A DNA stretch of 64,000 nucleotides, taken from Bolinopsis microptera. Taxonomy: Eukaryota. Under the pieces are notes generated by a model. It worked only from the letters and a program-made list of their open reading frames with translations, had not been told where the DNA came from and made no database searches. The position numbers were made by a program, and so were the translations under genes. Of the stretch, positions 12,722-52,685 are shown one piece after another (position 1 is the first letter of the stretch; each line of letters begins with the position of its first letter). The stretch is taken from contig NC_087073.1 of the NCBI RefSeq assembly GCF_026151205.1, positions 10,266,636-10,330,635 of the forward strand, given 5' to 3'.

Positions 12722-13220
12722 AAAGGATCAGGGTGTTGTCAAATCATAGAATTTAATCTATGTTTTATCTAAAACTCGATAAATCAAAATCGGCAAAACA
12801 AACATGTAGCATGTATAATTAAAAATGTATATTCACTCACAGTCCTCAACGTTCAAAACAGGATTTGCTATGACCAAGTTTTCGTCTAAGATTTCTTCTG
12901 TCATGACTCAAATGATAGAATGTAGCCGATTCTCTGTAAAGCAGCAGTTCTTCGTCAACAGGAAAAAACAGAAATTAGAAGAGTAAAATCTTTTGATTTT
13001 TAGTAGTTTAAATTCTGTTTAATATTCATATCCATGGGAAATTTATTTCGTTTATAACTATGTCTATTCCCTCTCAGACGGTTATTTAGTGGTCATGGTA
13101 TTTTGTGGCCGAGCAGTAGCAGTACTGCCAGTACGTTACTTTTGAAGACCCAATGACCACTCATGCTGTCAACCATTATTTTGTATTTTAAACTATCCAT
13201 TTTTCCCAGCTACCCGCTAC

Positions 13221-28454: not shown

Positions 28455-28519
28455 GAAAAGGCCCTTTGGGCATAAAAAGTGATCTGGATGGGTGTATTTT
28501 TGGACGCTGATTCCGAATC

Positions 28520-28552
<33 letters not shown>

Positions 28553-29087
28553 ATGACGTAGGGTTAAAATGCTTCCCTGGAGAGTTATGGGCAAAAAACC
28601 ATTTTGGTCACGTGACAGGCTAGTAAAATACGAATTCGATTGTTTAGGGCCCGGGTTAGGGTTAGAGTTGTGGTAAGGGTTATGGTTAGCTTCGGGGTTA
28701 TGGTTAGGATGATAATTAATCACTCTACACTCGACTGTCACGTGACTTTTTCAACCCGTTCTCTAGCTGGTCCTGAACGACTATTCGAAACCCTAACCCT
28801 CTTATTTGATCCCAACCCTAACCCTAACCCAATCCTTAACAAAAGCATATGCTGAAACCCTAACCCTAACGAGAAATTAGACTAACTTCCTTATACTGTA
28901 TACGGTCATATCACGTGATCGAGACAGTTTTTCGCCTATATCTCTTCAGGGGAGCATTTTAACCCTATGTCATGGGGGTGATTCGGAATCAGCGTCCGAA
29001 AATACATCGATTGAAGTTGGTTTCAACTGTCGGGGGCCCTTTTAGAACAATCTCGAACTCGAAGATCGACTGTATGTAGAATGATTT
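28455..29087. mobile_element. Composite T-MITE locus. A forward partial copy (28455-28717) is fused head-to-head to a complete reverse copy (28718-29087), with more TTAGGG-like sequence downstream (29100-29180).
   Basis: Homologous to 6736-7192 in both orientations: GGACGCTGATTCCGAATCA...ATGACGTAGGGTTAAAATGC forward, and its reverse complement at 28940-29010. TIR ATTAATCACTCTACACTCGAC lies at 28718. TCACGTGA occurs three times. Confidence 0.6.
28522..28552. repeat. 31-nt poly-C homopolymer inside the T-MITE TIR-proximal motif GAATCA(C)nATGAC
   Basis: The same position has C5 in copy 1 (6893) and C4 in copy 3. This looks like a homopolymer expansion. It produces the spurious poly-Gly ORFs 28297-28554 and 28439-28741. 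Confidence 0.9.
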
Positions 29088-29394
29088 AGTACGCTTGTTA
29101 TGGTTAGGGTTAGTATAGGATTGGGATTAGGGTTTATGTAAAACCGTTTTGTACGGCTGCAAAACCATAAAAACCAAAGTCACGTGAAATTTTCATTTGA
29201 TGCATCGCCACAATAATATAGCATCAACCCAATCACAAACTTGGAAATACTCGATACATTTTAGTTTGTTATTAATATTACGAACAAAATTATATTTATT
29301 AATATAAATATTGTCTGGAGACCTGATAAAAAACGTACAAGATAATAGTAATTGTTGGAAACTAATCTAACATACATATAGTATTATTGGATGT

Positions 29395-30995: not shown

Positions 30996-31027
<32 letters not shown>

Positions 31028-32379
31028 CACCCTGATTTTTTTGTGAAACTTGGTTTCGAGATAGCAGTTGATCAACAAACTAAGACCGGTGACCGAACTT
31101 GTGAGGGGGTCCCGGACCCCAACCGCCAAACGGTGCCCGCGGGGCAGCCACGCCCATATTTGGTCCAAATTAGGCCCAATTTAGCCAAATACCCTGAACA
31201 TGCCCAAAATACAGATTTTAGGTGCTTTACTTGTAGCTAGTGGTCTCCTGAACTCGTATATGAATTTTCATCAAGATTGGACAAAAAATGACTGAGTTAT
31301 GAGCCAAAAACCATATGACCATATTTGGGCATACGCTCCAAAATTCATAGATTTTGGCCCATTAATTGGTCAAATATCATTATTTTTGAATGAAACCAAC
31401 TTTATATGGAAGGTAAGCCTATACTACACATTCTCTATGATTATCAGCTTAATATCTACCTAACTGTGGATTCTGTGTTCAAATAATCGCAAAAAAAGAA
31501 CAAAATCGCCTATATCTCAGTTCGCGATATTTGCAAAAACTGATTTCGCTCAAAACAATAGAACTCAATAGGGTTTCAATATTTTTACATGAAATTTTCA
31601 GAATCAACGTAGAATCGCATTTCGACCTTAAGTTTTGTATTGGAATTTTGAGTTAGGCCTTTAAAAAAATTTGGCGGCCAAATTCCAAATTTTGCAATGC
31701 GAAATTCAGAATTTGGCCGCCAAATTTTTTTAAAGGCCTAACTCAAAATTTCAATACAAAACTTAAGGTCGAAATGCGATTCTACGTTGATTCTGAAAAT
31801 TTCATGTAAAAATATTGAAACCCTATTGAGTTCTATTGTTTTGAGCGAAATCAGTTTTTGCAAATATCGCGAACTGAGATATAGGCGATTTTGTTCATTT
31901 TTTGCGATTATTTGAACACAGAATCCACAGTTAGGTAGATATTAAGCTGATAATCATAGAGAATGTGTAGTATAGGCTTACCTTCCATATAAAGTTGGTT
32001 TCATTCAAAAATATTGATATTTGACCAATTTATGGGCCAAAATCTATGAATTTTGGAGCATATGCCTAAATATGGTTATATGGTTTTTGGCTCATAACTC
32101 AGTCATTTTTTGTCCAATCTTGATGAAAATTCATGTACGAGTTCAGGGAACCACTAGCTACAAGTAGAGCATCTAAAATCTGTATTTTAGGTATGTTCAG
32201 GGTATTTGGCTAAATTGGGCCTAATTTGGACCAAATATGGGCGTGGCTGCCCCGCGGGCACCGTTTGGCGGTTGGGGTCCGGGACCCCCTCAAAAGTTCG
32301 GTCACTGGTCCTAGTCTGTTGGTCAGCTGTTATCTCGAAACCAAGTTTCACAAAAAAATCAGGGTGAACCCCCCCCCCC
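30996..32379. mobile_element. Large near-perfect palindromic foldback element with homopolymer termini (G30 ... C11), flanked by TTAA. Element B.
   Basis: G run 30996-31025 and C run 32369-32379. The two ~680-bp arms are about 95% identical as reverse complements around a centre near 31688 (GGCGGCCAAATTCCAAATTTTGCAATGCGAAATTCAGAATTTGGCCGCC). TTAA at 30992-30995 and 32380-32383. Confidence 0.75.
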
Positions 32380-32443: not shown

Positions 32444-35325
32444 ATGGCTGAAATCCTGGATGAAGATATTCTAGCCAATATATACTCTGAAGCCAAGAAA
32501 TGCGAAGAAGATGGGTTTTTAGATGAAGCACTCTCACTTTACCAAGACGCATTCAATCTCCGAGAATCAGAGTTTTCAAAACTAGCTATTGATAGACTGT
32601 CAGATATGATAAATACTAAATTGGCTTCTAACTTTGATGCATCACTTCATCTCAAAGCATCTCCACGCTTCCAGTCTACCCCATACTCCACTCAAGTAGA
32701 TGATGTAGCTTTAAATGGACCATCTGTTTACGGTGGTTCAAGGACAACACCTGTAAGATCAGTCTTAAAGAATAAGAACTTGAACATAAGTGGTATTAGT
32801 CAGCCAAACAATATGACAATAGCAGTACAAGAAGGTGAACAATCATTTGATGCTGGCCATTACAACAACCTCATAATTGAAGCTCGCTCACTTTATAAGA
32901 ACAGCAAGCAGCTTGAGAAAGCCCTTGAAAAATACAATGAAGCTTATTCCTTACACCAAGATGCAAAATTGTACAAACGGATACTAAAAATTAACCAAGA
33001 GCTAAAATTAAAGCAGGTTCAGACATATGTTGAAACGTCAGCAAAAGAATCAGAATCTGATAAGGAGGACCTGATCGATCAATATAACAACCTTGTTATC
33101 AATGCTAAAGCTTGCTTAGAATCTGACAGAGCAGATGAAGCTCTTCGACTATATCAAGAGGCTTACAAGGTTGACCCTTCTGAAAAACTTCTTCAAAAGA
33201 TAACTAAATTAGAAGAGGAATTAGCTCCGGCTGATAACAGCACTAGTGTAGACGTCGAGCAATACAACAATCTTATCAAGGAAGCAAAAGCAAAGCTGAA
33301 GGAGGAAGACTATGAAGGTGCCCTTTTGAAGTATGAAAATGCAAATGAGATTAATCCTACGGAGAAGCTGCAAAAGAGAATAGACAAGATCAAAGACTTC
33401 ATTGAAAATGATGATGAAGAAGATGATGATGATGATAATTATGAGCAGGTCACTCCAACAAATGATCCTTATCCATCAAACGATCAAGATTTGAATAAGT
33501 CTGTTGTTAAATCTGAGGTTGATGAACATTGCAATAGCTTGGTTAAGAATGCTCAAATTTGGGAGGGGAAAGATATGTTGAGTGAAGCATTAGATGCATA
33601 CAGAGAAGCTCAAAATTTAAAGCCCTGTCCTTATTTTGTTCAGAAGATCAACGATTTAGAAAAGAAGCTTGTTATCAATGATAACAATGAAAATGATGAT
33701 GAATCTGAGCTAAATGTTGAACATTATAATCAGCTCATTATCCAAGGAAGGGAGCATCTTAATGATGGCAATTTGTCAAAAGCTTTAGAAGCTTACAATG
33801 AGGCGCATAATCTGAATCCCTCTGAAAAGCTTTCAAAGAGGATCACAAAAATCGAACAAAAGTTGTCTGCTGAATTAGAAAAGGAGGATGAAGAACCGGA
33901 GATAGATGATGAAATCAGGGATTATTATGAAGCTACCATTGCAGACGCCAAGAACAAGGAAGACAAACTTCTGTACGATGAGGCAATCGCTCTTTATGAA
34001 GAAGCTCATGAACTGATTCCAAGTGACAACATCTCCCAAAAAATTGCTAGTTTGGAATTTAAAAGGGACTCCGAAAGAGATCCTCAAGATCACAAGCCAT
34101 CTTCAGTACAGAGCCTCAATGATCTATCGGCTGATGACAAAGCAAAGTACAATGAGTTGATAGTCAAAGGGAAATATGCTCAGAAAGAGTCAAAAATTGA
34201 AAAGGCTCTCAGTTATTACAAAAAGGCTGCTCAAATTTATAAGAATGAGAAACTGGGTACTAGAATACAGAAACTGGAAACGTTTTTGAAAGAGGAAGCT
34301 GAGAACGAAAATCTCTACACGGATATTGGTGATGGCCTTTTCCTTACAAATGATATCCACGACAAATTGTATCAATACCAGAGGGAAGGTGTGAAATGGA
34401 TGTGGGAGCTTTATCGAGCTGAGCATGGTGGCATTCTTGGAGATGATATGGGTCTTGGTAAAACGATTCAAACAATAGCTTACTTGCAAGCCCTGTTTCT
34501 GATGGAGGAAATTTCGACAGCCATGCTGTGTATGCCTCTGTCACTTATCAATAACTGGCAGGTAGAATTCAAAAAATGGGCTCCAGAAATCCGTGTTGAA
34601 TTGTTTCATGGCTCAAAGAATGAAAGAGAAAGAAATGTTAAGAAAGTCATCAAAAGAGGGGGTGTTATCTTGACGACTTACGGGATTATCGAGAAAAATG
34701 TAGAGTTCTTGGTTAACACCTCGTTCAAGTGGGACTATCTTGTGCTGGATGAGGGTCACAAAATCAAAAATCCCACCAAAACCAGTAAAGCTATGAGAAA
34801 TGTGCCGTGTAATCATAGGCTCCTTATTTCTGGTACACCTATTCAGAATAATTTAAAAGAACTTTGGGCTTTGTTCGACTTCGTGTCCAGAGGTAAACTT
34901 TTGGGAACCATGACAACTTTTAAGATGAACTATATAACACCTATCGAAAGAGGTAGAGAAAAAGATGCCTCCAAAGGGGAAGCTAAACTTGGAGCTAAAC
35001 TTGCAGAAAATCTCAGAAAGGTGATTGACCCCTATTTCTTGCGTCGGACAAAGGCTGAAATCAAGAAAAACGGCAATGATGCCTCCAGCGGAGTAAGCAA
35101 GCTTGGAAAAAAGAACGAGCTGTGTGTCTGGCTCCAGCTGTCAAATGTGCAACTCAACCTCTACAAAGCTTTTTTGACTCTCGATTCAGTTCGGGATGCA
35201 ATGAACTCTTCTAAATCCCCACTCGCTGCACTTACTGTTTTAAAGAAGATATGTGATCATCCCAGACTTGCTACCAAGTTTGAGGCTCTACGAGAAGTTA
35301 TGGATGCAGAAAGTATGAGCATGAA
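32444..35325 (+). CDS. ERCC6L: ERCC6L/PICH-like SNF2-family DNA translocase, coding exon 1. N-terminal TPR-like repeat array plus SNF2 ATPase N-lobe.
   Basis: ATG at 32444, with the splice acceptor tttgttttag just upstream at 32423-32432. Seven or eight ~50-aa repeats of the form [HQ]YNNLIxxA...AL..Y.EA..L.PSEKL.KRI.KIE, then a DEGH-box helicase region: LYQYQREGVKWMWELY...GGILGDDMGLGKT...LVLDEGHKIKN...LLISGTPIQNNLKELWALFDF. Donor ATGAA|GTAAGT. Confidence 0.8.
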
Positions 35326-35442
35326 GTAAGTTTTAAAAGTTAGAGAAAGGAAATTAGTCTAGTTGTGTTGTACTTTCTTGTGACTTTGACTTTCGAGTTA
35401 ATACTCGTGATGTTAATAAATCTGTTAACTCAATTATTTCAG

Positions 35443-35641
35443 ACCTGAGGATCATCAGAAACTCCTTTCAACAGTTGAGCTTCCTAAAGATCCAACGGAT
35501 GACATTCTTCAAAGAGAAAGCTGTAAACTAGAGTTTGCTCTAGGATTGCTGGATCTTCTGGCTGCAGATGGACATAGAACACTTTTATTTTCAACCTCTC
35601 TCAAGATCCTGAATTATATCCAGTCGATGATAGCTGACAAG
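35443..35641 (+). CDS. ERCC6L: ERCC6L-like exon 2
   Basis: Acceptor ttatttcag. (K)PEDHQKLLSTVELPKDPTDDILQRESCKLEFALGLLDLLAADGHRTLLFSTSLKILNYIQSMIADK. Donor AAG|GTATTA. Confidence 0.7.
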
Positions 35642-35796
35642 GTATTAAATAATAGATAAATATCTTCACATGTAAATTCTAACGTTTTGCTTTTCGAATA
35701 AATTCATTTCACGTCCGTTCAATTAGATATTTATCGAATTTTCAGTTCGTCATTACTTATTATACCGTAATATTCCTCTTATATATTTAACTGCAG

Positions 35797-35959
35797 GGTA
35801 TGCAATATTTGCGGATAGATGGTTCCATCAACAAGCCAGGTGACAGACAGGCAATAATCGACTCATTCAACACTGACATGAGATACACTGTTTTATTACT
35901 GACAACTCAAGTTGGAGGTGTTGGGCTCAACCTTACCTCCGCTGATAGGGTTATCATCT
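35797..35959 (+). CDS. ERCC6L: ERCC6L-like exon 3, helicase C-terminal domain
   Basis: Acceptor taactgcag. GMQYLRIDGSINKPGDRQAIIDSFNTDMRYTVLLLTTQVGGVGLNLTSADRVII. Donor T|GTAAGT. Confidence 0.7.
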
Positions 35960-36185
35960 GTAAGTTATTGTCATTTCTGTCGTCCTTTTTGTAAGTTTGG
36001 GTGTTGTGTGATCGCTTTTAGCAGCATTCTTTCGAAATTGAACGGTAAATTATCACTGAAACTGTAGGAAACTCAAGCAATGGGACGATGTTTGACTGCC
36101 ATTCTGTACTTAATGATAAAGCTAATATTTACTGTGTACTATAACAGCTGCTCTTACATAAAACTAACTGATATAACGTTTGCAG

Positions 36186-36375
36186 ATGATCCTAGCTGGA
36201 ATCCAGCTACTGATGCCCAGGCTGTAGACAGGTCTTATAGGATAGGACAAACAAAACCAGTCATTGTCTACAGGCTTCTTACCAGTGGAACTATCGAGGA
36301 GAAAATTTACAGGAAACAAGTGTTTAAAAACAGCATCACCCGGCAGGCCACTGGAGAATCATTAGATCCAATCAG
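36186..36375 (+). CDS. ERCC6L: ERCC6L-like exon 4, SNF2 motifs V-VI
   Basis: Acceptor gtttgcag. (Y)[62 protein letters not shown]. Donor AG|GTATGC. Confidence 0.75.
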
Positions 36376-36565
36376 GTATGCTACTTGTCACCTCAATTCA
36401 AAAATGTTGTTTTTAAGAGCAGGGAACAGGCTTTAGTTTCTAAGAAGGCCTTCCAACCCCCTTATAAGATTTTCCAAGCTTTTAAACTTGGTGTCCAATA
36501 TACTTTTGCCAGTAAATGTTATTCAAGGGATTGTATACAATAACAATTAATTTTAAAACGTGCAG

Positions 36566-36714
36566 GTACTTTACGAACCAAGAGATCTCACAGTTATTTG
36601 AGCTGGGGAACACTTCGGTGAGTGAAACCTGTACTCAACTTGAGGAACTGCACGGAGCTGCCAGGAATCATTCTGACCAAGTTAAGAGTGACTTGAAGGC
36701 TATCGAGGAAATGG
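36566..36714 (+). CDS. ERCC6L: ERCC6L-like exon 5. The 3' end is uncertain; an alternative donor GTGAGT lies at 36619.
   Basis: Acceptor acgtgcag. (R)YFTNQEISQLFELGNTSVSETCTQLEELHGAARNHSDQVKSDLKAIEEM. Donor G|GTAAGT. Confidence 0.55.
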
Positions 36715-36867
36715 GTAAGTTCGTCCACTGAAATCTAACTATCCTACATTAGTGAGTTTCAATGAGTCAAGGCATAAACTAGTTGGTTTAAAAAAAGTTT
36801 AACAACATTCCCAATTAAACAGCTTAATTTGGTTATAGTTTTAAGTTTTAACGTATTGTTTTGCTAG

Positions 36868-36959
36868 GTGCCATTGCCTGCAGTGACCATGATTTACTCT
36901 TTTCACATGAGGAAGTAGTGGAAAATACTCCCGAGGAGCGCCAGTTCGTAGAGGACAGG
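36868..36959 (+). CDS. ERCC6L: ERCC6L-like exon 6
   Basis: Acceptor ttttgctag. (G)AIACSDHDLLFSHEEVVENTPEERQFVEDR. Donor AGG|GTAAGA. Confidence 0.55.
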
Positions 36960-37980
36960 GTAAGATCCCTTCTGTTTAATACGGTCAGAATTAGTTGTTC
37001 AAACTTACCGCCCCCTATAAAATGTATCTCAGATCAATAAAAATTTGTGTCATCAGACTTGAACTCTTTTGAAGGATCAACAAGAATTGTTCTTGAACTG
37101 TCACAATAACACTTGAACTGTCACAATAACACTGTCACAATAACACTGTCAAAATCACTGCATTATGTAGCGCGCGAACGCCTAACCTCTTAATTGTTGA
37201 TTCGCGCGAAATTCAAAATCTTAAATTTATTTAAATTATTAGCTCATCGCATCGCGCGCGTCGACCTTATCACATGTTAATATGATATATGATATAATTA
37301 CGTTATGACTTTATGAGTTCAGCCATACATGTCATGTCGGTTGTGATTTGTGAAAATAGGAAACACCTGGATAAGAATAGGATCACATCGAATCACCAAG
37401 TGTATAATGACTGATGAGTCACGACTCCAGCTAGTTTTTCTAGCTTCAGGGGAGGTACAGCTTTTCAGAAGGACGATTTCTGCGATTTCAATCAGATAGG
37501 ATATCTCGGATTTTATCAATCCTTACGCCGATCCGGCTCCCCTGACCCCTAGGATACAGCTGAGCGGCGATAGGATGTGTAAGTTCCGAGAGGCGATAGG
37601 ATTCGCTCTCGGACCCGATAGGAAACGTAAAACCTATCGGATCCGAGCGCTAATCCTAGCGGAGAAATGATTTAACGATTCTGGTCATGCTGTACAGCAT
37701 GACCAGATGGCGAACTCACCTGCTTGCCAAATTGCTTTAATTGTGGTCTGAAGTAAGTACTGGGTTCCTGGATAGGGTTCTCAGTATGGTCGCAGGCTCT
37801 AATCTCATTCGACAGCAGGCTACTGTAACTGATCAAAACGAAAGTCTAGAGAACACCTGAACGTTGCCGCGATTTTCACGAAGTTGTCACACACTGTTTA
37901 AATCACTCGATTACCGTGTATGATAAATTAATTACAGGTATCCGATACAGTTCGACTCCATTTAATGGATGTATTTGCAG

Positions 37981-39187
37981 GTACAACAAGCGAAAAGGCA
38001 CATGGCTGCTGAAGCAGCGGCAGCTGGACCAGTTCCGTTCCCTAACTACACAGCCCCTAATCGCAACACACACAACCCTAACCCAGGAGCTACTGCTGTG
38101 CCACTAGGTGGGGGAATGAGAGCACCTTGGGAGCCTACTAGAGGGCACAGTATGTGGAATAATAAGGAGGCGGAAGTTGAGGCTGTTCGTAAAGATATCG
38201 AGAGGGTCGAGATAAGAGCTAGAGAGTCTCCTTATTTCAAAGAATCGGAGGGCAGGACAGCAGAGGTCATAACAATTGACGATGATGATGATGAAAACGA
38301 AGTTCAAGTCAAGGAGACTAAAGAAGCGAAGAAACTTTCATTGACTGATTACAAAAACAGACAGATGAAGATATTCGATTATGTCGACAGTCCGACCCAA
38401 GAATCTCGTGAAATCCCAAGTAGTCCTACCTTCAAAAGCCCAAGTAGTCCTACCTTCAAAAGCCCAAGTAGTCCTACCTTCAAAAGCCCGGTCAGGCCAA
38501 GAAGGTCCATCAAGAAGAACGTGGTTACACCTAGGAAATCGCTCAGTAATCCAGTGGGTCAGATAATCGCTAACCATATCCAGAACACTCCTAAAAAGAA
38601 GTCTGCATATAGTGACGATGAAGTTGAAGATGATCTGGAGAATTCCAGGTATGACAACCTGAACAAGCCGCCTTGTTTGGACGATTCTGAAGATGAGGAT
38701 GATTATTATGATGGTCAAGAAGAGCAAGAAGCAGATGAAGAACACGAACAAGAATCCAAAGAGGAGCAAGCGGCCGATGTTGATGACGATGAAGAATATG
38801 ACGAAGAGGAAGAAGAGGAAGAAGAGGATGAAGAGGAAGAAGTCGTAGAAGTCGTAGAAGTGGAAGAAAAGGTTGATGATCTAGAAGGCTTAGTCAAGAG
38901 CTTAAAGTTCAACTCGCCTCACAGCTCGGATCAGCCAGCTAATCAGCAAATTGAAAAGACTACGGAGATCAATCGGAGACCACCCTTGGAGCCCAAAAAC
39001 CTCTTAACTGAGAAACTCAAAACACAGGCCACAGAATCTGAAGTTAGAACTCCAAACCTTCATCAACTTGACCCTCGGCAACAAGATCAGTCCAAGTCAC
39101 AGCCGAGAAAAGAGGAAAAGTCAAAAAGAAGTTCAAAAGTCGACAAAGAGAACAAACAACCGGCCTCATCTAAATCCTCCAACTCAG
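37981..39187 (+). CDS. ERCC6L: ERCC6L-like large C-terminal exon: low-complexity acidic region, three tandem SSPTFKSP motifs, K/S-rich tail. The 3' boundary is tentative; the ORF runs to 39315.
   Basis: Acceptor tatttgcag at 37980, in frame with exon 6. Long ORF 37969-39315 with D/E-rich stretches (DDDDENEV, EEEEEEEDEEEEVVEVVEVEE). Candidate donor CAG|GTTTTT at 39187. Confidence 0.5.
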
Positions 39188-39332
39188 GTTTTTACAGGCT
39201 ACAGAGTTTTATATCTTCAGTTTGTTTTACAGAACAAAGGTCAGCTACCTTTATCTTGAACTTCAATTACAATTTAAAATTTAAGAACCTAAAATTCTGT
39301 ACTACATTTGAATAATTTCATTTTCAATTCAG

Positions 39333-41285: not shown

Positions 41286-43334
41286 CGGTCCTGAAGTCGA
41301 GAATTGAATATCAGCTAACTTCACCTATCATTGATTCCTAACTTCCTGTTGATTGGAGAGCGAACTTATTTACATAGTGCTGTTTCCTGACAGTGTATTC
41401 TAGTGGGAGGTGAAGCATATTTTTGGCACGTGCAGTGATCTGGGGGACGGGGTTTGACTGGTCAATAGTGGTAGATGATTGGTTTATTGCTGTCACGTGT
41501 CAAAACGATATACCTGACCTCCCCACCATGCATCAGAATCCACGTCTATATTTAATCAAAGCAAAATATTTTTCCAGTTAATCAAATCAAAACATGAAAA
41601 AAGAAGTGTAACAAAAAGATTAAATTATGACATTACTGGCCCCATAACAACTGTGCGAACAATTTAAAGAACTTGTAAACTTGTGTTACTTGTCATGGTG
41701 CATCAAACACCACCACCCCGGTTCAGTACGGATTTAATGGGGGATGCGGGGAGTAATACTGGACCATGTTATGTGAACTGTGGTCTGCACTCATATTAGT
41801 GTGGTGGAAGACATCACATCGTATTTGTTTTGATAATGATACTGAAACAGTTGGGGGGGGGGGGGGGGGGGCGTCCAACCCGATTTCCGATATGAGGGTT
41901 GATGAGGCCAAAATCGGAATCGGAAAAATAGGAAAATTGAGAAATTTACTGAATCGATCTCTAAAACCTCTCAGAAGTGATATAATTTAACCAGAACCCC
42001 TACATATGCTATGTATGCTATATGAAAACGAACCAATTGTACATTCCAATAGTATGTTTTATGTGTATTCCCATTTCCCACTGCATGCATGATGCAGGGG
42101 CTAGTATGCTCACTACTAGTTGGAGTTATCATGTACTCCCAGACCCGAGTGCTTTGGTCTCTTGTGAGATCGATTGTTTCTGCTCATTGATTCTATCCCT
42201 GTTACTTGTTATTATGTATTAGTAGTAGTACAACACTGGGTACCGGGTTATATTTTGTGGTCCGGTCTTTAAACATACCATAATATCACTATACTTAGTA
42301 TACTGCACCTTAAGGCCACAGGGGGGGGGGGGGGGTCGAGGCCTCAAAAAATGCAAAAAAATATTATGCTTTGAATTAATATATATTTTTGTGGCGGATA
42401 CTTTGCCACCACTCATTTGTCTGTAGCTATTTTACTTTTTTTAATAAATGAGGTTAACCAATTCTTCCGAAATTGGCTATGCAATATTGAGGGTAACGAA
42501 ATTGATGCCTAGAATTGATTTCATGCCAAGATATTTTGTTGTTTCGATCAACAAATAATGAATCCTAATTCTGTTTCGCAATTGGTTGAAAATGAAGGAC
42601 CCAAAGTGGGTAAAAACGAGGTTAACCTCTTATTTCATTGATATCGAGAAGGACTGAGATGAAAGTTATCATCATTCATAAAGTAAGTTCAGTGCATTTT
42701 AATTTCAAAACGTATCTCGTACTAATGTATTACTTCAAATCTACAGAAAATCTAAAAAATGAGGTTAACCAGGTAAATTGTGACCACTATAAAACATACA
42801 TAATTGTCTAATTTTTAATCGAACTCAAGACATTAGTAAGTTATATATTTGCTGGGAAGATTGATCACGAGAAAAATATGATTTGAAACAACTATTCCTT
42901 GCAAGCAATATTGACCATTAACATACGATAAAATGAGGTTAACCAACTTATTTCAATTTGTAATACAGCAACTTTAATGGAACCTTAATAGCGGTTAACC
43001 TCACATTTGAATATCAGTTAACCTCAAATTTGCATCATTAATATGCAGTACTTGCAGGAAATGGTGTTTCAGGGATTTAATCTCCTTAAGTGTATCAAAA
43101 ACTACAGTATATAACATATGGAACTACAAATACAAGCCATACCATGTGTTTAGTGACTAAAGTTAACCTCATTTTTTTGATGAATCGATGATGGAGGGCA
43201 GAAATATTGATGCCATTACAACTGAAAACTACTATTAGTTTTGTTTTTATAGTTTTTGTGTTATATCAGCAGTTAAACTTTGAGAAATATACAAATAAAG
43301 GCAAAATACTCAAAAATCACAAAACATAAAAAAC

Positions 43335-44566
43335 TAGGCTATCCATTATCGGTATGAAATCTTTTATCTAGATAAACAGATAAAGATTTAGGTTTTATCT
43401 AGATAAAACCGATAAAACCGATAATTTTTCTGCTGAAGGCCAAAGCCTAAATGTTTTCCAAATTTCGCAAAAACTAATTGTCGACTTTTATTACTGTTTA
43501 CCAGTAATCTTGCTAAAGTACCACTTCCTTTCTTTTGAAAATATTAGAGCATCAGTTTTCTTCTCCGGGGAGCAGAAGTGCACCAGTTTTCTTCAAAACA
43601 GTAGACCAACGGTTTTCTTCGCCTAAGAACAGTAGTGTACTACCAGTTCTCTTCAAAACAGTAGACCAACGGTTTCTTCTCCTGAGAACAGTAGTGCACC
43701 AGTTCTCTTCAAAACAGTAGACCATGAACGGTTTCCTTCTCCTGAGAACAGTAGTGCACCAGTTCTCTTCAAAACAGTAGACCAAGGGTTTCCTTCTCCT
43801 GAGAACAGTAGTGCACCTGTTCTCTTCAAAACATTATCTGACCAAGGGTTTCCTTCTCCTGAGAACAGTAGTGTACTACCAGTTCTCTTCAAAACAGTAG
43901 ACCAACGGTTCTCTTCTCCTAAGAACAGTAGTGCACCAGTTCTCTTCAAAACAGTAGACCATGAACGGTTTCCTTCTCCTGAGAACAGTAGTGCACCAAA
44001 TACCAATTCTCCTCGAAACAGTAAAGCATTTAAAGTGATTCAGTGAACCGTTTTCTTATCCTGTTGATAACTTGGAGCAACAGATTCCTACTCCTGAAGA
44101 CAATGTTTCACGCCCAGAACACTTACGGAATTCAATTGAGTGCCCTGCCGGTATTTTTGACTCTCGTTAACAGTAACATGCTCGTTCCCGTCTCCAGAAT
44201 GATTATAAGGTAAAACGCCAGCACTCTCAAGAGAACAATGTCAATAACCTTCTCTGGATTTCAACAGTTCATACAGTTCTACAGTTCCAAAGGTATACAA
44301 ATGTAAATAAACCTCTTAAGCTCACATCTAAGTAAACTACCTCTTCTATCATACTAGAAGACGTTTGGGACTGTTTCTTGGATTACTTAGGAAGGCAAAA
44401 ACACTGATATTTCTTTACAATTTTACGGTATTGTGGAAGTATTTTCGGTAATATCTAGTGAATTTTTATACCGATAACAATATGTTTTATCTAGATAAAC
44501 AGATAACTTTTTTTAACGAATTATCGGATATAATTATCGGTTACGATTATCGGAGTGGATAGCCTA
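43335..44566. mobile_element. hAT-like MITE with an 8-bp TSD, nested in D. Element E.
   Basis: TIR TAGGCTATCCATTATCGG ... CCGATAATCGTAACCGATAATTATATCCGATAA...GGATAGCCTA. Subterminal TTTATCTAGATAAACAGATAA occurs in both arms. Perfect 8-bp direct repeat TAAAAAAC at 43327-43334 and 44567-44574. Confidence 0.65.
43535..44010. repeat. Minisatellite, ~56-bp unit x ~8, inside element E
   Basis: Unit agttctcttcaaaacagtagaccaacggtttcttctcctgagaacagtagtgcacc. The ORFs 43552-43785 and 43653-44006 are artefacts of this array. Confidence 0.9.
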
Positions 44567-45381
44567 TAAAAAACAGTTTTTTGCCTCTCCTGAAAACCTC
44601 GAATTTTAGACTTTAAAATCTATCTTCTCCTAGAGCTTTTATCCAATTCACCTCAAATTTGGAACATACGTTCCTGACATAAATTTAAAAGTTTGTTATG
44701 TAACGATTGTTGTAATTTTGCTCCTAACTCTTTTTATGAGGTTAACCGTTTTAAATTTTGTAACCCGTACTTATGGTTAACCTCATATCTCAGCTTTGGA
44801 GCAAGATATCAAAAATCGTTACATAACAAAAACTCAAAATACCTTGAAAAACATTTTTGCCAAGTTACAAGGTTCTAAGTCGTAAACTGTAAAAGAAGAT
44901 AGATTTTGAACACGATTTCATTTAAAGTTTTCATTTACAATAGAATTACAGGTAAACCTCAAAATTCAACGCGCGATATCTTCAAATAGGAAAGTTTGTT
45001 TTCAGTAAGGACAAAAGCATTTGAAAATTTAGATCGAGCTCTACAACATATCTCAAAATCTCAAAATTGACCTCGGACCCCCCCCCTGTGGCCTTAAATG
45101 TATAGTCAAGTACGTTTGTAGCGTGATCGGTGGTACATGCTTGGCTTTAATAAACATGTCTGTAGGTACATATATAGTAAACTATATGGCAACACATAAC
45201 GGTCCATGGCAAGTTTAAATTATTATCTAATGTGCATCAGTATTGTATAATCCAGTGTCGAAAATTGTTTCTTCCATTCAATATAAAGTTTTGCTTTATT
45301 CTTTATTTATCGTCTCAATTTTGTACATTTTGTGTGGTTATTTTTTCTCAAATTAGTTTTGAAATTTCTTGTTCATTGTAA

Positions 45382-46531
45382 TTGATCAGTTTGTGCAGGG
45401 CGTTGGCCTCTGCTTTTCTGTTAATCTCAGAATTCTTTTCACTATATCTTCTTCCAGGTCTCATGCCAAAATATACTGATATGGTGGAGACACCTTCACC
45501 ACCTGGTATTACCAGTCAGAAAACAGCCCGATCAAACAAAATAGCAACCAGAAAACAGCCCCAGAATAAGGGCAACAAACTGAAGATAAAACTCCGTGGC
45601 CGTCTCATAAAGAAAGGAAAAGTTGAACAAAGCACCAACAAGAAACCTAAAGATTTATCCGAGAAGAAGGCACCAGATGTTGGCAGTGCATCCGGAAAAT
45701 CCAAGCTTAATCCTAGAAAGAAGAAAAGAATTGCTACGATATCATCAGACTCAGATTCAGAGGCAAATGTGCAGCTGAACAAGAAAAATGTAAAGGATTT
45801 GTCACAGCGCCAAAAACTTAAAGCTGTGACAAATCCTTTACATAAAGAGGAAGGACAAACAAGAATACAAACAGCGAAAGACTTTATGGCTATCGTTAAA
45901 ACAGCTAATTTCCTTGCTAAACTCGATAAAGACCCCACGTATTCAGATATAAGCAAAGTTTTTGCCAATTTTGATATGACCCTATCCAAAACTGTTATTG
46001 ATGATGTTTTCAAACGGCGTTTTACAAAAAAACCCAGTAAGAAACTCCATTTATTTATGAAAGGGGCAATTCATGGGTACCCCGAAAATCTTAATCGATT
46101 TCAGTATCGGCGAAAGCCGCAGAACAGACCTGTGTTGAAACCCACACCGGAGCCTGAGAAGACTACAAGAAAGTTTGAAAGTTTCAAAACTTGCAAAGAA
46201 GCACTCTGGACTTTCTTATGCAACAGTCTTTTCACTCGGCATTACTGCCATAGAAAAGTTTGGTCCTCACGTCCTTGATGACGATTATAAGTTGGAAGCT
46301 CTTGTAGAGGCAGAGCTATGCAAATGGAGGCAAGATAAACTTCTATTCTCATTCGGAAATCTCCCATCGGCTGAAAAGATAAGTGTGCCAGAGGCTGTCA
46401 CAGAAGTCAGCAACCTTCTCGTGATTAGACTTAAGACTACTGTAGATGAGCTCAACAATCCAGTCTCTCAGGGCTGCGGTTCAGATCAATCGGACGGTGA
46501 TCGTGTGTTTAATTTTTCATTTATAGAATGA
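45382..46531 (+). CDS. Lys-rich ORF pair (298 aa and 118 aa, separated by one apparent frameshift near 46180-46280) of unknown function, inside element C
   Basis: Long open frames reading KKGKVEQSTNKKPKDLSEKKAPD... and ...LEALVEAELCKWRQDKLLFSFGNLPSAEKISVPEAVTEVSNLLVIRLKTTVDELNN. No recognisable transposase motif (no DDE/BED signature seen). Confidence 0.25.
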
Positions 46532-48520
46532 TTTCAGTACTGACACTTTTTGACTAAACCCAGATTGCCGTGATCAGACATCGCATCAGCATGTGATTAT
46601 GGTGGTCAGCTTTTTTACTACATTAAATGAAATGGTACTGTAATCTGTATCATGTATATATTGCTCTGACCACACCTTTTTTAATGATTCATCAATTTGT
46701 TGTTCCATGCCAGTACAGTGGCATATTAGATTTGGTTTTTAAATATTTAGATTTTTAAGTATCTTATTAGATTTTATGTTGTTAAATTGGTTTTTTAAGT
46801 TATTAAATTGGTTGTTTGACTGACTTTTTTTGATTGTTTATTATGTTCTTGTTTAAATTGTTTAACTTTGAACTTTATTTACTGTAGATTTTTACAGCCA
46901 GTAACGGCAGTACGGGATTTTGATTATTAAATCTCTTTTTCAACCTTATAATCAAATATTTTAATCCATTGTTGATTGTTCTGTATTGACTTATTATATA
47001 TTTTCTAATTCGATATACATGATTTTTACTTTACACTGATGTTTCACTTGAATATTTGTGTCTCTTGATAACAATTACAATTTCTGCTGAAGATTGTTCT
47101 TTGATCTTAGAATCAATTTAAAACAAAATATTAAAAATTAACCATTACAGTGTGCACAGCTCAATTGAAGTTTCAAAATGCAATATAACATAAAGCCATT
47201 GTTACTATTTGGTTTGGGGTTCTGGGACCACCACCAATCAATTTCTTGTCATATTTAAGTACAGAAATAGCTACCTATATCGCCTAGAAACCTCAGAGGA
47301 AAGATTTAAATTTTCCCGATTTTCCCGATATAAGGGTTAATGATGAATGAGGCCAAAATCGGAATCGGAAAAATCGGGTTGGACCCCCCCCCCCCCCCCC
47401 CCCAACAGTTTAAAGAGTTTGGTCTCTGCACTACCCCGAAGACAAACTTTTAAAAATTTTACGAACCTTGATAGCATTCGCCATAATTATCAACAAGAAA
47501 CAAAACAGCTGGCAGAAAGAAGTAGAACTTCTCATATCAAACACATCTTAGCAAACAGCATGATACAAAGTATGTGATCACCTCGTGTCATAAACTGAAT
47601 TTTTACTATTAAGAGTTAATATTAAGTGATATTAAGAATTAAACTTTTTTTAATCTACCTGCAAATTCGATCTTATTATCCAGTACAGACTGCAGCAGGC
47701 CCTGCGTGTTACGGACGCGGTAAAGTTAAACACATTTAAATCAGAATCTGTTTTTCATTTTTAATGTTTTTAATGTCACCGCCTGGAATTATTTTGTACT
47801 ATGCAATCTTTATCTATTGTTAGAATTTGATTTGAACAAGATATAGTGACTATGATAATTTAAGATATTGATTGAATGCAGCTTATTGACGATCGTGCAG
47901 CTTATTGACGATCGTGAGGTAACGATGGTTGATTAAATTTAAATTCATCACGCTTGGCTTGAGAACGTTGAATATCCCTATTCACAAAATTGAAAATAAT
48001 ACATAAATTATTGAAAGGATTCTTAATCCTAAGATAAAGAATTCGATTAGATAGTTAGATATATCAAGCACATGAGTTTGCTTCAGTGATCAGTTCGTTG
48101 CAAATATTAAATTCGCCAAGTAACAGATCTTAAATTCATGTTGCAAAATTATAGGTTTCTAAACTAACTTTTTAATTACCTACATGGCGATTCGTGATTT
48201 ATTTATAACGATAATTTCACTTTCTTAAAGTTTAAATAAAAGATAATTCAATTTCTAATTTAAAGTGGGTAGAAATATTAAATCAAAAGTGTTTAACATT
48301 TTAATGTCCGATCAACCAATCGATGAATACATATCATTTAAATTGGGTAGGATTGCTATTTGAGTATTAGTATTAGCATTAGCAATTAGTGATTGGTCAA
48401 CTGCACAAGCCCATGTTTATTTATAGATTACCTTAATTCCCAAAAATTTGGGCGACAAAAAATTTGAGCGGGCCTCTCGCCCAAATTTTTTGCAGACCAA
48501 ATTAATTGCATAATAATTGC

Positions 48521-49040: not shown

Positions 49041-49636
49041 CGGGGGGGGGGGGGGGGGGGGATCAGGTACCAAGTGCCGGACATCACGTCGACTAAGTGT
49101 AGTTTTGGATATTTTTCACTAGACCCACCCACCCCCTTTGCGGTACTAACTGTTTTTTTGGATAATACGTAAGACACCCACCCCTTTTGCCGCCTTTTGC
49201 GGTACTAACTGTCGAAAAATCGTGGTACTAACTGTTTTTTGGTATATAGAATAAGATACCCACCCATAAATTGCTTTAAACAGCTCATTAAACATTGGAA
49301 ATGGGAAAATTATACCCACTATTTAGTAGGGGTTTTGTTTTCAATGTCGTCGAATTAGCTAAAAAGTTACACAAAAAATTTTAAAATTACAAAAAACCCA
49401 AAAAAAAACTCAAAAAAACCTCAAAACCCATTCCCAAAATTGAAATTTGAGGTAAAATGGTTTTTTTTGGGGTTGGACACCCAAAAAATTAACCCCTTAG
49501 TACCATGTACTAATTGTTTTCCTGGAAAATGGGCAGTAGACCCACCAGTTAGTACCATGTACTAACTGTGTTTTTGGGAGAAAAAATGACCCACCCACCA
49601 CCGTCATGTCCGGTACTAAGTGTATGATCCCCCCCG
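49041..49636. mobile_element. ~600-bp MITE with homopolymer termini (CG20 ... C7G). Element F.
   Basis: CGGGGGGGGGGGGGGGGGGGGGATCAGGTACCAAGTGCCGGACAT at 49041 mirrors ATGTCCGGTACTAAGTGTATGATCCCCCCCG ending at 49636. Internal tandem CCCACCC...TTGCGGTACTAACTGTTTTTT units. Flanking direct repeat ATCCAAG at 49034-49040 and 49637-49643. Confidence 0.65.
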
Positions 49637-50080
49637 ATCCAAGTGAAATAATATTTAAAATTTTAGTTTTCCAATTCTGCTTAAAATTGAAAGCAAAATG
49701 ACTGGAATAATAAGGAATAATAATGAACTAAGGCAAATATCTAACTGAAATTTTAGTGGAAAATCGTTCATTTTTGAAGAATTTGTGCCCAAATTTTCGG
49801 TCGCCCAAATGAATTCAAATTTTCTGCCCAAATTTTTCGGGCTCAAATAAATTGTGCTCAATATAATGGCACACAAATTTTTGGGAACTAAGGTAAAACT
49901 TTAACAATTCTTGTTTTACCAGGATCAAGCATCACATGGTATGTACGGCCACCCAGCTATCACAAAGTTTAATTAAGTTGCGCACGAATCGGAGTACAAA
50001 GTTGCATGAGATTGTCACATATTTCCCTCGCTCTATTTTGACGAGCGCGCTAATATATAACTCACTCTAATTAAATATAG

Positions 50081-50510
50081 AACTCACTCTAAACTTGATA
50101 TTCGAGATTTTTCTAAAAGGGCCCCCGACAGTTAGCTGGAACCATCCAGAAACAATGTATTTTCGGACGCTGATTCCGAATCACCCCATACCGAATCACC
50201 CCATTCCGAATCACCCCATACCATGACATAGGGTTAAAATGCTCCCCTGGCGAGATATTATTATTGGCGAAAAAACTGTCTCGATAACGTGATATGACCG
50301 TATAAGGAAGTTGGTCTGATTTCTCGTTATGGTTAGGGTTTCACTTTCAGCATATGATTATGCTTTTGTTAGGGATTGGGTTCGGGTAAGGATCAGATTG
50401 AGATTAGAGGATTGGGGTTTAGAATAGTCGTTCAGGGCCAGCTATAATTATAGAGAACGGGTTGAAAAAGTCACGTGACAGTCGAGTGTAGAGTGATTAA
50501 TCATCACCCC
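50081..50510 (+). mobile_element. T-MITE copy 3
   Basis: Collinear with 6736-7192: ...TTTTCGGACGCTGATTCCGAATCACCCC (with a triplicated ATACCGAATCACCCC), ATGACATAGGGTTAAAATGCTCCCCTGGCGAGATATT, TTAGGG-like tract, then AAAAAGTCACGTGACAGTCGAGTGTAGAGTGATTAATCATCA. Confidence 0.6.
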
Positions 50511-51167: not shown

Positions 51168-51641
51168 GGCGGCTGCGGAGCTAGGAATGTAAAACCGTCG
51201 GACGATGTTACTCGACTTATCATCGAAGGATTGAAGCATAACGGAGCAACACTTCCCGCATCCTTCGCTCCGTTTGTCGACAAGTCAAAGATAGGCTCAC
51301 TTCCAATGACTCCAGCTAATCAGCCAGTCGTTGGTTACAGATTAGGAACAATGGCCCCAAAAACTAAGAAAGTTACTAAGGTCGCAGGAAACAGACGTAA
51401 GAAATGTCCTAAGAAAAGGAGACAAGTCATCAAACCGCCTCCTCCAGAATCATCGGATAGCGAGTCCGCTATTGTGATAGGTTCCGAATCAGAAAAAATT
51501 TCTGATGATACTTCAACGTCTGGACAACTTGTCTCTTCGAGTGCTAGTATGAAGAACAATGAAAATAACAAGAAATTGGAAAAATTGTCCGTCGCTAATG
51601 GCAATGCTAACGTAGTATTGGGACAAAAAACGAAGTTGTGA
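51168..51641 (+). CDS. Exon 2 of the small gene: basic and Ser-rich, with a KKCPKKRRQV NLS-like stretch
   Basis: Acceptor tattccag in matching phase. ...GCGARNVKPSDDVTRLIIEGLKHNGATLPASF... continues to the stop at 51641 (ORF-track 51231-51641). Confidence 0.4.
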   Translation, partial: GGCGARNVKPSDDVTRLIIEGLKHNGATLPASFAPFVDKSKIGSLPMTPANQPVVGYRLGTMAPKTKKVTKVAGNRRKKCPKKRRQVIKPPPPESSDSESAIVIGSESEKISDDTSTSGQLVSSSASMKNNENNKKLEKLSVANGNANVVLGQKTKL

Positions 51642-52432: not shown

Positions 52433-52685
52433 CAGTGGCGTAACGTTGCCTGTTGGCCCCCCCCCCCCCCCGCCGAAAAAGGGCCCCTCCCTTTTCGACG
52501 CCCCTTTTAAGAAGATTTTACACCAGTAAAAGTGTGTTTCTAGAGCAAATCGCGCAGTTTTGCTAGTACCTCAGTTAAGCTGTTCAAAATTGTCACACAT
52601 TCAAACGACGATTTGGCGCCCCCCCCCTCCCCTAAGAGTAAGATCCCCTAACCCCGGTCGGCGGGGCCCTTCGTTTCGCCACTGC
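52433..52685. mobile_element. ~250-bp MITE with a C15 homopolymer in its left arm. Element G.
   Basis: TIR CAGTGGCGTAACG...GGCCCC(C15)GCCGAAAAAGGGCCCC on the left. The right end ...GGGGTTAGGGG / CCCCTAACCCCGGTCGGCGGGGCCCTTCGTTTCGCCACTG is its reverse complement. Confidence 0.5.

Follow-up and report, generated by a model that had tools for sequence, protein, structure and literature searches.

The 64,000-nt stretch of Bolinopsis microptera DNA analysed here (the window) contains a block of inverted ends and flanking duplications that raises two questions, namely whether it grew by insertion of one transposon into another or moves as a single composite, and what kind of element the outermost one is, with its open reading frame and the long runs of G and C that close it at both ends. 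As to the first, the locus was probably built up in three steps, each a cut-and-paste insertion of a non-autonomous TIR DNA transposon unrelated to the others, with D entering C and E entering D. Such a nest is in itself ordinary in an invertebrate genome and shows only that this intergenic stretch tolerated repeated insertions. As to the second, C apparently belongs to an undescribed transposon family, with G/C-run ends and a conserved gene of its own, of unknown function (ORF2).

Boundaries and make-up of the elements

Element C lies where the sequence-only reading of this DNA had placed it, with G19 and C20 caps and AACAGTT flanks (Table 1); in its left cap, G19 is followed by C and G, which makes a 21-nt G run with a single substitution. 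The inverted arms of C (run plus TCCAACCCGATTT) extend over 33 nt with 97% complementarity, and its left subterminal unit, which forms only a weak hairpin (DNA fold z = -1.3), matches 47315-47377 in direct orientation at 81%. The length of C without D is 2767 bp, and no trace of a transposase-like ORF was found in it. C is old and decayed; the family of which it is a copy consists of G/C-capped TIR transposons, and C has kept the family's second gene, ORF2.

Table 1. Positions of the elements and their parts in the window and, in the last three lines, of related elements on other contigs
Feature	Position	Strand	Description
Element C	41853-47403	+	5551 bp; inverted ends and flanking AACAGTT
C TSD	41846-41852 and 47404-47410		AACAGTT, 7 bp
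C left end	41853-41886	+	G19-C-G cap and TCCAACCCGATTT
C left subterminal unit	41879-41932	+	CCCGATTTCCGAT...ATCGGAATCGGAAAAAT
C right end	47300-47403	+	subterminal unit, TTGGA and C20
ORF2, pseudogenised	45463-46531	+	~355 aa; ATG at 45463, stop 46529-46531; one frameshift near 46200
Element D	42314-45093		2780 bp; non-autonomous TIR element; GGCCACA-G15...C9-TGTGGCC
D flanks	42310-42313 and 45094-45097		TTAA
Motif (A)AAATGAGGTTAACC in D	42445-44789	both	nine loci, none in E: 42450, 42618 (perfect palindrome), 42761, 42935, 42994, 43017, 43162, 44738, 44776
Element E	43335-44566		1232 bp; TIR TAGGCTATCC/GGATAGCCTA, 10/10
E TSD	43327-43334 and 44567-44574		TAAAAAAC, 8/8
E subterminal repeats			ATTATCGG/GATAAAACC/TTTATCTAGATAAA; short, clustered at both ends
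Minisatellite within E	43530-43998		~8 copies, 57-60-nt unit
El1	8458-9823		G27...C10; TIR CCAATGGCATAAA; TSD (G)GAATATT
El2	30996-32379		TTAA-flanked; G30...C11
El4	49041-49636		C-G20...C7-G; TSD ATCCAAG
L020 element	8123-12429 of L020		G15/C10
L022 element	4760-10421 of L022		G18/C6TCC
L023 element	6085-11504 of L023		G14/C7

The position and TTAA flanks of D also stand as first described, although its tip, reported as G17, counts as G15 (42321-42335), the right run being C9. Its arms, TTAAGGCCACAG9, are perfect over 20 nt, and its length without E is 1540 bp; no coding sequence was found in it, nor a second full-length copy, nor an autonomous relative. Of the ten or more copies of a 12-bp palindrome attributed to D, a single one is a perfect GAGGTTAACCTC, and what recurs, at nine loci, is a half-site restricted to D. 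Allowing up to two mismatches, GAGGTTAACCTC matches at ten places across the 64 kb, and nine of these fall in D; the expectation is 2.0, and none of 100 shuffles reached ten; the 9-mer half-site GAGGTTAAC occurs five times forward and five times in reverse, in D only and never within E. A TTAA duplication together with 5'-RR...YY-3' termini is the hallmark of Kolobok transposons (PMC9587614). D has both (GGCCACA...TGTGGCC) and is, judged by these ends, of Kolobok type. A piggyBac-type assignment was rejected, as the TTAA fits but the termini are GG...CC and not the 5'-CC...GG-3' of that group (PMC10045372).

The bounds of E, its TIR and its perfect 8-bp TSD were confirmed, and the chance of an 8/8 direct repeat abutting its 10/10 TIR is about 2e-5, counting the TSD alone. 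Its minisatellite, first given as 56 bp, is approximately that (TRF period 60, consensus 57 nt). E contains no ORF, and searches returned neither a transposase relative nor a second copy. The hAT TIR consensus is commonly given as YARNG; the first four bases of TAGGCTATCC fit it, and the fifth is C, not the usual G. By its 8-bp TSD, E is classed as a hAT-type non-autonomous element. The label of MITE that it had received does not hold, its 1232 bp exceeding the strict-sense limit of about 800 bp for a non-coding, high-copy element; neither C, at 2767 bp without D and with an ORF, nor D, at 1540 bp without E, qualifies, and "non-autonomous element" is the safer term for all three.

G/C caps recur on other elements and are not peculiar to C. 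El1, which has strong terminal hairpin units in direct orientation, splits an ORF for reverse transcriptase, and deleting 1374 bp (El1 plus 8 bp) brings the frame of that ORF back. El2 as a whole reads as a palindrome (arms of 682 nt, 96%) and thus has a foldback make-up, which C, D and E, with arms of 33, 20 and 10 nt, do not.

The G/C runs and the capped family

Runs of the form G(n)...C(n), of 7-37 nt, are borne by no fewer than eight elements that have flanking TSDs of several classes, and eight G/C runs of 15 nt or more were observed in the window, where 2e-6 would be expected; the literature searched yielded no description of G/C-run transposon ends. Both L007, a NODE contig of Illumina style, and contigs of long-read style carry such runs, as does the window itself. 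In L007, G34 precedes TCCAACCCGATTT, and the last ~190 bp of C are 87-88% identical to this contig, whose flank and interior differ. Additionally, a related genome (sample ERZ25073829) has elements of C's design, in L020, L022 and L023, which share the TIR TCAACCTCATTTTA, a TSD of 6-7 bp and, in direct orientation, a terminal unit of 72 nt (98.6-100% identical). These copies are mutually 96-99% identical, and that of L022 bears a hAT-like insertion with the TIR TAGGGATG... and the 8-bp TSD ATGAGGAG. Three features define the capped family: a G(n)/C(n) homopolymer closing either end; behind it a short block and a repeated ~10-nt subterminal motif, arranged in a hairpin-capable unit whose orientation is the same (direct) at the two ends; and an internal ORF2, which encodes a K/R-rich, all-helical protein.

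A longer relative, L024, on a contig that includes neither element end, is collinear with the L020 element on either side of a 4.2-kb segment, and the junction between the two is a simple internal deletion. Upstream of ORF2, this segment carries an ORF of ~600 aa with a D...D...DxxH...E pattern, read by eye and without statistical support as STDATA ... GDGD ... DMLH ... DHCEQLF, and also D..E..F...R. The ORFs of L024 and their joined 516-aa product gave no Pfam match at E values up to 10 and no match among PDB sequences. The C of the window may likewise be a deletion derivative, moved in trans by an L024-type ORF that we infer to be the transposase.

The runs belong to the element ends, are passed on with them and drift by slippage; they are not artefacts. 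It is rather unlikely that they are instead made anew at or after insertion, for which fill-in slippage at staggered ends, non-templated 3' addition or a genome-wide expansion of short G tracts are candidate routes. Such an origin would suit the widely different ends of single elements (27/10, 30/11, 20/7, 15/9), an unrelated repeat family where one copy has C31 in place of an internal C4-C6, the presence of runs in families whose TSDs measure 4, 7 and ~10 bp, and the bimodal lengths of G/C runs, where A/T runs stop at 10. However, three siblings at different loci resemble one another in their runs, with the same asymmetry each time (15/10, 18/9, 14/7), and the C subfamily is long in two independent sources (G34; G21/C20); terminal addition in particular is opposed by D and El4, whose runs sit 7 nt and 1 nt in and are therefore not the outermost sequence. 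Inheritance has an awkward side as well: the cut made by a DDE transposase should fall a set distance away from the site it binds, which fits poorly with runs of variable length. Ends transmitted at variable length therefore imply either an unusual step of cleavage or repair, or a strong G/C-tract instability specific to these genomes and focused on transposon ends.

Among TIR DNA transposons, a family with capped ends and a second gene of this kind is a new form of moderate interest. Tentatively, and at well below even chances, the capped elements may be a lineage of eukaryotic DNA transposons of marine invertebrates that has yet to be described, and perhaps a superfamily, with a 6-7-bp TSD, ends made of a long homopolymer and direct hairpin units, an unclassified DxxH transposase and a novel all-helical ORF2, the homopolymer being a working part of the end. 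In that event the run could be present during staggered cleavage as single-stranded 3' poly-C or as G-quadruplex-prone 5' poly-G, and a working role would explain its transmission, the asymmetry of the ends and its spread to, or copying by, families of TTAA type and of 10-bp TSD that share these genomes. ORF2, and beside it the transposase-like ORF that current profile libraries miss, offer concrete starting points for the classification of a transposon lineage not recognised so far, and in annotation short-read assemblers and repeat finders will mis-split such elements at the homopolymers.

ORF2 and the order of insertion

The frameshift noticed at first in the ORF of C is present, and its position was set by alignment to homologues, but the corrected length is ~355 aa and not ~400 aa. 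The protein has a K/R-rich N-terminus and two helical domains in a structural model that is moderately confident only (pLDDT 56). The homology search that had been proposed for it gave no match in Pfam, PDB sequences or a fold search, and did find relatives: four by exhaustive HMMER, and by profile search 18 clusters, one of 187 members, for hundreds of copies. The homologues are 27-32% identical to ORF2, and three of them (P0124, P0127 and P0126) are located inside the capped elements of L020, L022 and L023; these represent the one of the three lineages outside the window whose context was read, the contigs of P0122 and P0123 being too short.

These data support ORF2 as an element-borne gene, the second of the two origins put forward by the sequence-only reading; as a guess, its product might bind DNA at the subterminal motif. 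The first origin, a host gene fragment captured in a Pack-MULE-like manner (transduplication), is improbable. It could accommodate a frameshifted ORF with no known domain that is dispensable in cis, as a subfamily of the related genome in which ORF2 is deleted and interrupted has been amplified, and also the sequence L016, in which the N-terminal 79 aa of ORF2 are joined to different downstream sequence. Against it stand homologues that, at such low identity, occupy the same position in elements of the same terminal design, a TIR that has diverged together with the ORF (TCCAACCCGATTT versus TCAACCTCATTTTA), and the multi-copy state of the homologues, none of which has a source name or a precomputed Pfam domain, all coming from unannotated assembly contigs.

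The metagenome contig L016 holds a C-like sequence that crosses a single TTAA without D: its positions 1-107 match window 42195-42313 and its positions 102-699 match 45092-45699, with one TTAA between them. This empty site shows directly that D inserted into C. The order of E after D is one that we infer from E's own perfect TIR and TSD. C inserted first, at a target cut with a 7-bp stagger (AACAGTT); Kolobok-type D then entered a TTAA 457 bp from the left end of C, and hAT-type E would have entered D with an 8-bp duplication. All three are in decay, the window contains nothing able to move them, and the transposases that moved them can be assigned only provisionally.

The three-deep nest first described is thus supported, each element having inverted ends and a flanking duplication of its own, and the separate copies by which it was to be checked were partly recovered: C-like sequence without D (L016), C-type termini with another flank and interior (L007) and, for D, termini of the form TTAA, GGCCACRGGG...CCTGTGGCC, TTAA around a ~70-bp element in the related genome; a second copy of E was not found. 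A joint occurrence of C, D and E in every copy, which had been named as proof of a composite, is a weaker test than it was held to be, since the related capped element with its nested hAT has multiplied as a unit. That C, D and E form one composite that transposes as a unit, the inner parts being modules or anciently fixed passengers, is nevertheless very improbable; it draws on that element, whose hAT-like insertion lies in ORF2, on a junction peptide (QQHIEISNIPN joined to EENCGRN) in at least nine protein clusters with ~250 sequences, and on the failure to find a solo E, but the intact single TTAA of L016, the unrelated interior behind the C end of L007 and the perfect TSDs of D and E, each of a length typical of a different superfamily, speak for successive insertion. 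Finally, it is scarcely credible that the caps, and hence the boundaries of C, are sequencing or assembly artefacts, for while long homopolymers are error-prone on all platforms, so that exact lengths are uncertain and an error may account for the interruption in G19-C-G, the runs are abutted by perfect TSDs, removal of El1 plus 8 bp restores a reading frame, and assemblies that are independent and differ in type show the same cap and TIR.

Comparison with known transposons

E resembles hAT elements in its 8-bp TSD, its short TIR starting with TAGG and its subterminal repeats clustered at both ends, but it is larger than classic MITEs (1.2 kb, with an internal minisatellite). El2 shares with D the TTAA duplication and 5'-RR...YY-3' termini of Kolobok, whereas the long homopolymers present in both are not described for Kolobok ends (PMC9587614). 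KolobokP elements have terminal direct repeats of 450-660 bp that carry short TIRs of their own (PMC9587614) and resemble the direct-orientation hairpin units of C, El1 and the L020 family; the C family differs in its TSD of 6-7 bp, which is not TTAA, and in terminal units of 60-110 nt. The TTAA target of piggyBac is also that of D and El2, and in C, El2 and the L020 family the cores enclosed by the caps start, as in piggyBac, with CC(C)...(G)GG, although the termini of D and El2 are GG...CC.

The P superfamily generates TSDs of about 7-8 bp. In one description its TSD is '~8 bp' and that of Dada 6-7 bp (PMC3706591), a length class matched by C (AACAGTT), El4 (ATCCAAG), El1 ((G)GAATATT) and the L020, L022 and L023 elements (6-7 bp). 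A DxxH that follows the second D and precedes the E is common to hAT, Kolobok, MuDR, P and Dada, the C/DxxH group of DDE transposons (PMC3706591, PMC10045372), and the ORF of L024 shows a DxxH on reading by eye. The difference from the P superfamily lies in that ORF, which matches no Pfam entry, P-element transposase and THAP included, nor the solved P transposase. Dada was rejected, because it lacks TIRs and targets small-RNA genes (PMC3706591), whereas capped elements have clear TIRs and varied targets; the window contains no tRNA or Rfam match.

Other likenesses concern the form of the ends and the gene content. Galileo, of the P superfamily, is foldback-like, and El2 resembles it in this form. 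As leads only, G/C-rich simple-repeat extreme ends are shared with TBE1 of Oxytricha, a Tc1/mariner relative with C4A4 telomere-repeat ends and a 3-bp TSD, and long G/C homopolymers with Caenorhabditis genomes, where they are over-represented and, to our knowledge, not known as transposon ends. PIF/Harbinger elements carry two genes, for a transposase and a Myb-like DNA-binding protein, and the capped family is similar in having a small, helical and basic ORF2 beside a transposase-like ORF, retained in its deletion derivatives.

Structure of the nest and evidence for successive insertion

The three nested elements C, D and E lie exactly where the sequence-only reading had placed them, each with its own inverted ends and flanking duplication (see the table). 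The ends of C consist of a cap (a G(n)/C(n) homopolymer at the element ends), followed by TCCAA and by a unit composed of CCCGATTT/AAATCGG repeats, which is found in direct orientation at both ends and is decayed (fold z ~ -1). In D, the left run is G15 and not the G17 tip initially reported, and the claim of at least 10 palindromes reduces to just one perfect GAGGTTAACCTC with eight half-sites besides, all of them in D. At up to 2 mismatches this palindrome gives 10 matches in the 64 kb, nine of them in D, against 2.0 expected, a number reached in none of 100 shuffles, and the 9-mer GAGGTTAAC has five occurrences per strand in D and 0 in E or elsewhere in the window. Motif arrays are AAAATCGGG and AAAATGAGG, and the sites in D are AAAATGAGGTTAACC. 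One base separates the internal motif of D, (A)AAATGAGGTTAACC, from the terminal 15 nt (AAAATGAGGTTGACC) of the capped family of metagenome contig L020, a likeness that may reflect either shared protein-binding sites or stacked ends of TTAA elements. The minisatellite described in E is present in ~8 copies, with a unit of 57-60 nt, close to the 56 bp described. A fourth nested level around E, delimited by a GTTAACCTCAT pair at 43161/44752, was ruled out because the pair has no target-site duplication (TSD).

Apart from these details, the nest was correctly read as the product of successive insertions. The exhaustive HMMER search with the ORF of C led to a 2.1-kb ENA contig (L016) whose first 107 bases align to window positions 42195-42313 and whose bases 102-699 align to 45092-45699 (86% and 91% identity), the two being joined as ...ACTGCACC-TTAA-ATGT... 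with one TTAA. This contig is an empty site for D plus its passenger E within C-like sequence, and the insertion of D into C is therefore demonstrated rather than inferred. The insertion of E into D rests on a 10/10 terminal inverted repeat (TIR) with an 8/8 duplication directly next to it, a combination far beyond chance; no second copy of E was found. Ends of the D type (TTAA/GGCCACRGGG...CCTGTGGCC/TTAA) enclose a ~70-bp element in contigs L020 and L022. A marine-metagenome contig (L007) carries G34 followed by TCCAACCCGATTT and ~190 bp at 88% identity to the right end of C, while its flank differs and its interior is unrelated; it is the one real match among 13 in a metagenome scan for the TIR of C, the other 12 being chance matches in GC-rich bacterial contigs. 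Self-BLAST of the window returned no further copies of C, D or E, the sole matches being G/C runs, and scans of viral contigs for the TIRs of D and E gave 0 matches. The one match of the D TIR in prokaryotic genomes was judged to be due to chance. The proposal that C, D and E always occurring together would indicate a single composite element is weaker than it was stated to be, because nested composites in the capped group can later move as units, as seen in the multiplied L022 composite. The nest as a phenomenon is ordinary.

Features of the window and of related metagenome contigs (contig named where it is not the window)
Feature	Position	Ends or content	TSD
Element C	41853-47403	caps G19-C-G/C20, then TCCAACCCGATTT; arms 33 nt, 97%	AACAGTT, directly on both sides
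Element D	42314-45093	caps G15/C9, run 7 nt in from ends; perfect 20-nt arms TTAAGGCCACAG9	TTAA
Element E	43335-44566	TIR TAGGCTATCC	TAAAAAAC, perfect 8 bp
El1	8458-9823	caps G27/C10	(G)GAATATT
El2	30996-32379	caps G30/C11	TTAA
El4	49041-49636	caps C-G20...C7-G	ATCCAAG
Capped element	L020 8123-12429	caps G15/C10	
Capped element	L022 4760-10421	caps G18/C6TCC	
Capped element	L023 6085-11504	caps G14/C7	
Capped element nested in L020-family copy	L023 6467-7682	G10AG5-CCAAGGACTTTTT...C10AC37	AGGAATTAGC, ~10 bp
hAT-like insertion in ORF2	L022 5361-8100	TIR TAGGGATGTTCGAAATTTCAATATG (also given as TAGGGATG...)	ATGAGGAG
Repeat family	28411-29187, 6816-6950, 50020-50500; L020 10641-11026; L022 8599-8984	TIR CTAAATCGCTCGCCCAAAT; internal telomere-like (TTAGGG)n-type repeats	
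Reverse-transcriptase ORF	7255-11181	RVT_1 + zf-RVT; split by El1 into 7255-8457 and 9832-11181	
970-aa retroelement-like ORF	20399-23311 (- strand)	intact	
ERCC6L/PICH-like gene	32444-39315	TPR repeats + SNF2 in single 961-aa exon, 32444-35329	
Acidic/Ser-rich ORF	37969-39315	downstream of ERCC6L/PICH-like exon	

Capped elements in the window

The window is eukaryotic, transposon-rich and of 38% G+C. The ERCC6L-like exon shares 71% identity with an ENA metagenome contig and ~50% with mollusc, Nematostella (cnidarian) and Capitella (annelid) proteins, and the acidic/Ser-rich ORF ends ~2.5 kb from C. The 970-aa ORF has no Pfam match and by eye resembles the proteins of Penelope-like retroelements, its C-terminus having a GIY-YIG-like stretch (...IIYVAQC...YFGQT...). 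A perfect tandem 21-nt minisatellite at 12315-12749 encodes (TGHWSLV)n and creates a spurious 144-aa ORF. Rfam and tRNA scans of the window were empty.

Twelve G/C runs of 9-31 nt are present, when ~0.007 of at least 10 nt and 2e-6 of at least 15 nt are expected, and the longest A/T run does not exceed 10 nt. Ten of the 12 are paired as G(n)...C(n) at the ends of five TSD-flanked elements, namely C, D, El1, El2 and El4. The other two, C15 at 52457-52471 and C9 at 52619-52627, are located in a GC-rich stretch and lack any recognisable partner, TIR or TSD. Excising El1 together with 8 bp (1374 bp in all) puts the reverse transcriptase back in frame; each end of El1 has a ~100-nt hairpin unit, the two lying in direct orientation, as well as (ATTTTATGCC)n. 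El2, whose TIR (TTCACCCTGATTT) is similar to the TCCAACCCGATTT of C, is a near-perfect palindrome (682-nt arms, 96%, 1 nt between) with caps and TTAA flanks, and is therefore a foldback-type element. Together with the capped element nested in L023, these five show that caps accompany TSDs of 4, 7 and ~10 bp, the last a third TSD class.

The runs are not artefacts, because TSDs abut them and they recur in independent assemblies. The runs are inherited, sibling copies having run lengths of 15/10, 18/9 and 14/7, and they also drift. In the genomes that bear the C family, many TIR elements have long G/C homopolymer ends that are transmitted. The CTAAATCGCTCGCCCAAAT repeat family, unrelated to the capped elements and common to the window and a related genome at ~77% identity, has an internal C4-C6 in most copies and C31 at 28522-28552. 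A further run, C34 at L020 14688-14721, follows TTTTCCGATTTTGACCGAAAAATG... and resembles the right end of one more capped family, although the locus does not contain the matching left end. The low-coordinate (G) side is the longer in all five capped elements of the window (27/10, 30/11, 21/20, 20/7 and 15/9), and in the L020 family it is the cap upstream of ORF2 (the K/R-rich ORF of C and its homologues) that is longer; this bias could reflect end asymmetry or an effect of replication direction. No description of homopolymer-capped TIR elements was found in the literature that was searched, Repbase apart.

ORF2 and the capped two-gene family

The ORF of C extends from an ATG at 45463 to a stop at 46529-46531. 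The single frameshift previously noted is located near 46200, and the corrected product is ~355 aa long instead of ~400 aa. When it was searched against Pfam along with eight other window ORFs, it gave no match, nor did a word-indexed homologue search; exhaustive HMMER, the only search type to find any relatives, recovered four. One is an N-terminal fragment at 94% identity (L016), and three, at ~30%, come from contigs of Tara-type marine metagenomes, from a Logan assembly and from a long-read assembly in ENA. Their profile retrieves 18 clusters, all from ENA assemblies, one of them with 187 members. Three genes from these clusters (in L020, L022 and L023), the ones whose location was examined, each sit inside an element built like C, and the TIR and the ORF diverged jointly between two lineages, which argues for an ancestral gene of the element. 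Between the two origins offered earlier, an element-encoded protein is thus upheld and a captured host fragment is not: the ORF is the element's own conserved second gene. ORF2 is not an RNase-H-fold enzyme; our working guess is that it may be a DNA-binding or regulatory partner recognising a ~10-nt subterminal motif. In the L022 subfamily the 5' half of ORF2 is lost and the remainder carries a hAT-like insertion, yet this subfamily multiplied (its composite junction peptide occurs in at least 9 clusters and ~250 database sequences), and ORF2 is therefore dispensable in cis. Comparison with the nearby K-rich ORF at 51231-51641 found no kinship. A second ORF in L016 (900-1595), lying on the downstream side of the C-like segment, has an N-terminal domain that matches the ORF2 profile weakly (hhalign E = 0.007, probability 6%), and its motif GRGSCLFKAFS resembles OTU-type cysteine proteases.

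The L020, L022 and L023 elements are 96-99% identical among themselves and share the TIR TCAACCTCATTTTA, duplications of 6-7 bp ((C)AATTTT, ACAAAA and (C)ACATTT) and a 72-nt hairpin-forming unit in direct orientation, whose copies at the two element ends are 98.6-100% identical. Terminal hairpins are strong in this family and in El1 (z -4.5 to -7), and were rejected as a universal feature, being weak or absent in C, El4 and D.

The most complete ORF2 (P0125, 276 aa) is encoded on contig L024, which is collinear with the L020 element to the left and right of an extra 4.2-kb segment that is missing from the latter; a plain deletion accounts for the junction, which shows neither TIR nor TSD. This segment encodes a ~600-aa ORF, broken once by an intron-like gap and once by a frameshift, that contains ...WILSTDATA..., ...IGDGDPRLRK..., ...DMLHAVKKLRNN... 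and ...TSDHCEQLFSFLR.... By eye, these appear to follow the transposase-like order D, D, DxxH, E, a signature common to hAT, Kolobok, MuDR, P and Dada transposases (PMC3706591, PMC10045372). This ORF had no match when its sequence was searched against Pfam and the PDB, and tblastn found no remnant of it in the window. Between it and ORF2, L024 also carries an ORF for a RanBP2-type zinc finger (Pfam E = 2.6e-7) and a ~72-nt tandem array (3015-3236, 3524-4201). L024 is probably an autonomous relative, and C would by analogy have most plausibly arisen by a deletion that removed the transposase and spared ORF2, a history we infer for C because the deletion junction is shown for the L020 element only. 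C belongs to a capped two-gene transposon family present in several marine metagenome-derived genomes, and it is this family, its conserved second gene and its transmitted G/C ends that give the locus value beyond the nest.

Comparison with known superfamilies

The TSD of E has the length expected for hAT elements, and its TIR fits approximately. For the capped family, a TSD of 6-7 bp is compatible with P or Dada; P domains were searched for in the transposase-like ORF of L024 and not found, and Dada elements, unlike the capped family, have no TIRs. Finally, D and El2 fail the piggyBac terminal rule, 5'-CC...GG-3' (PMC10045372), and display both sequence hallmarks of Kolobok, the TTAA target and 5'-RR...YY-3' termini (PMC9587614).
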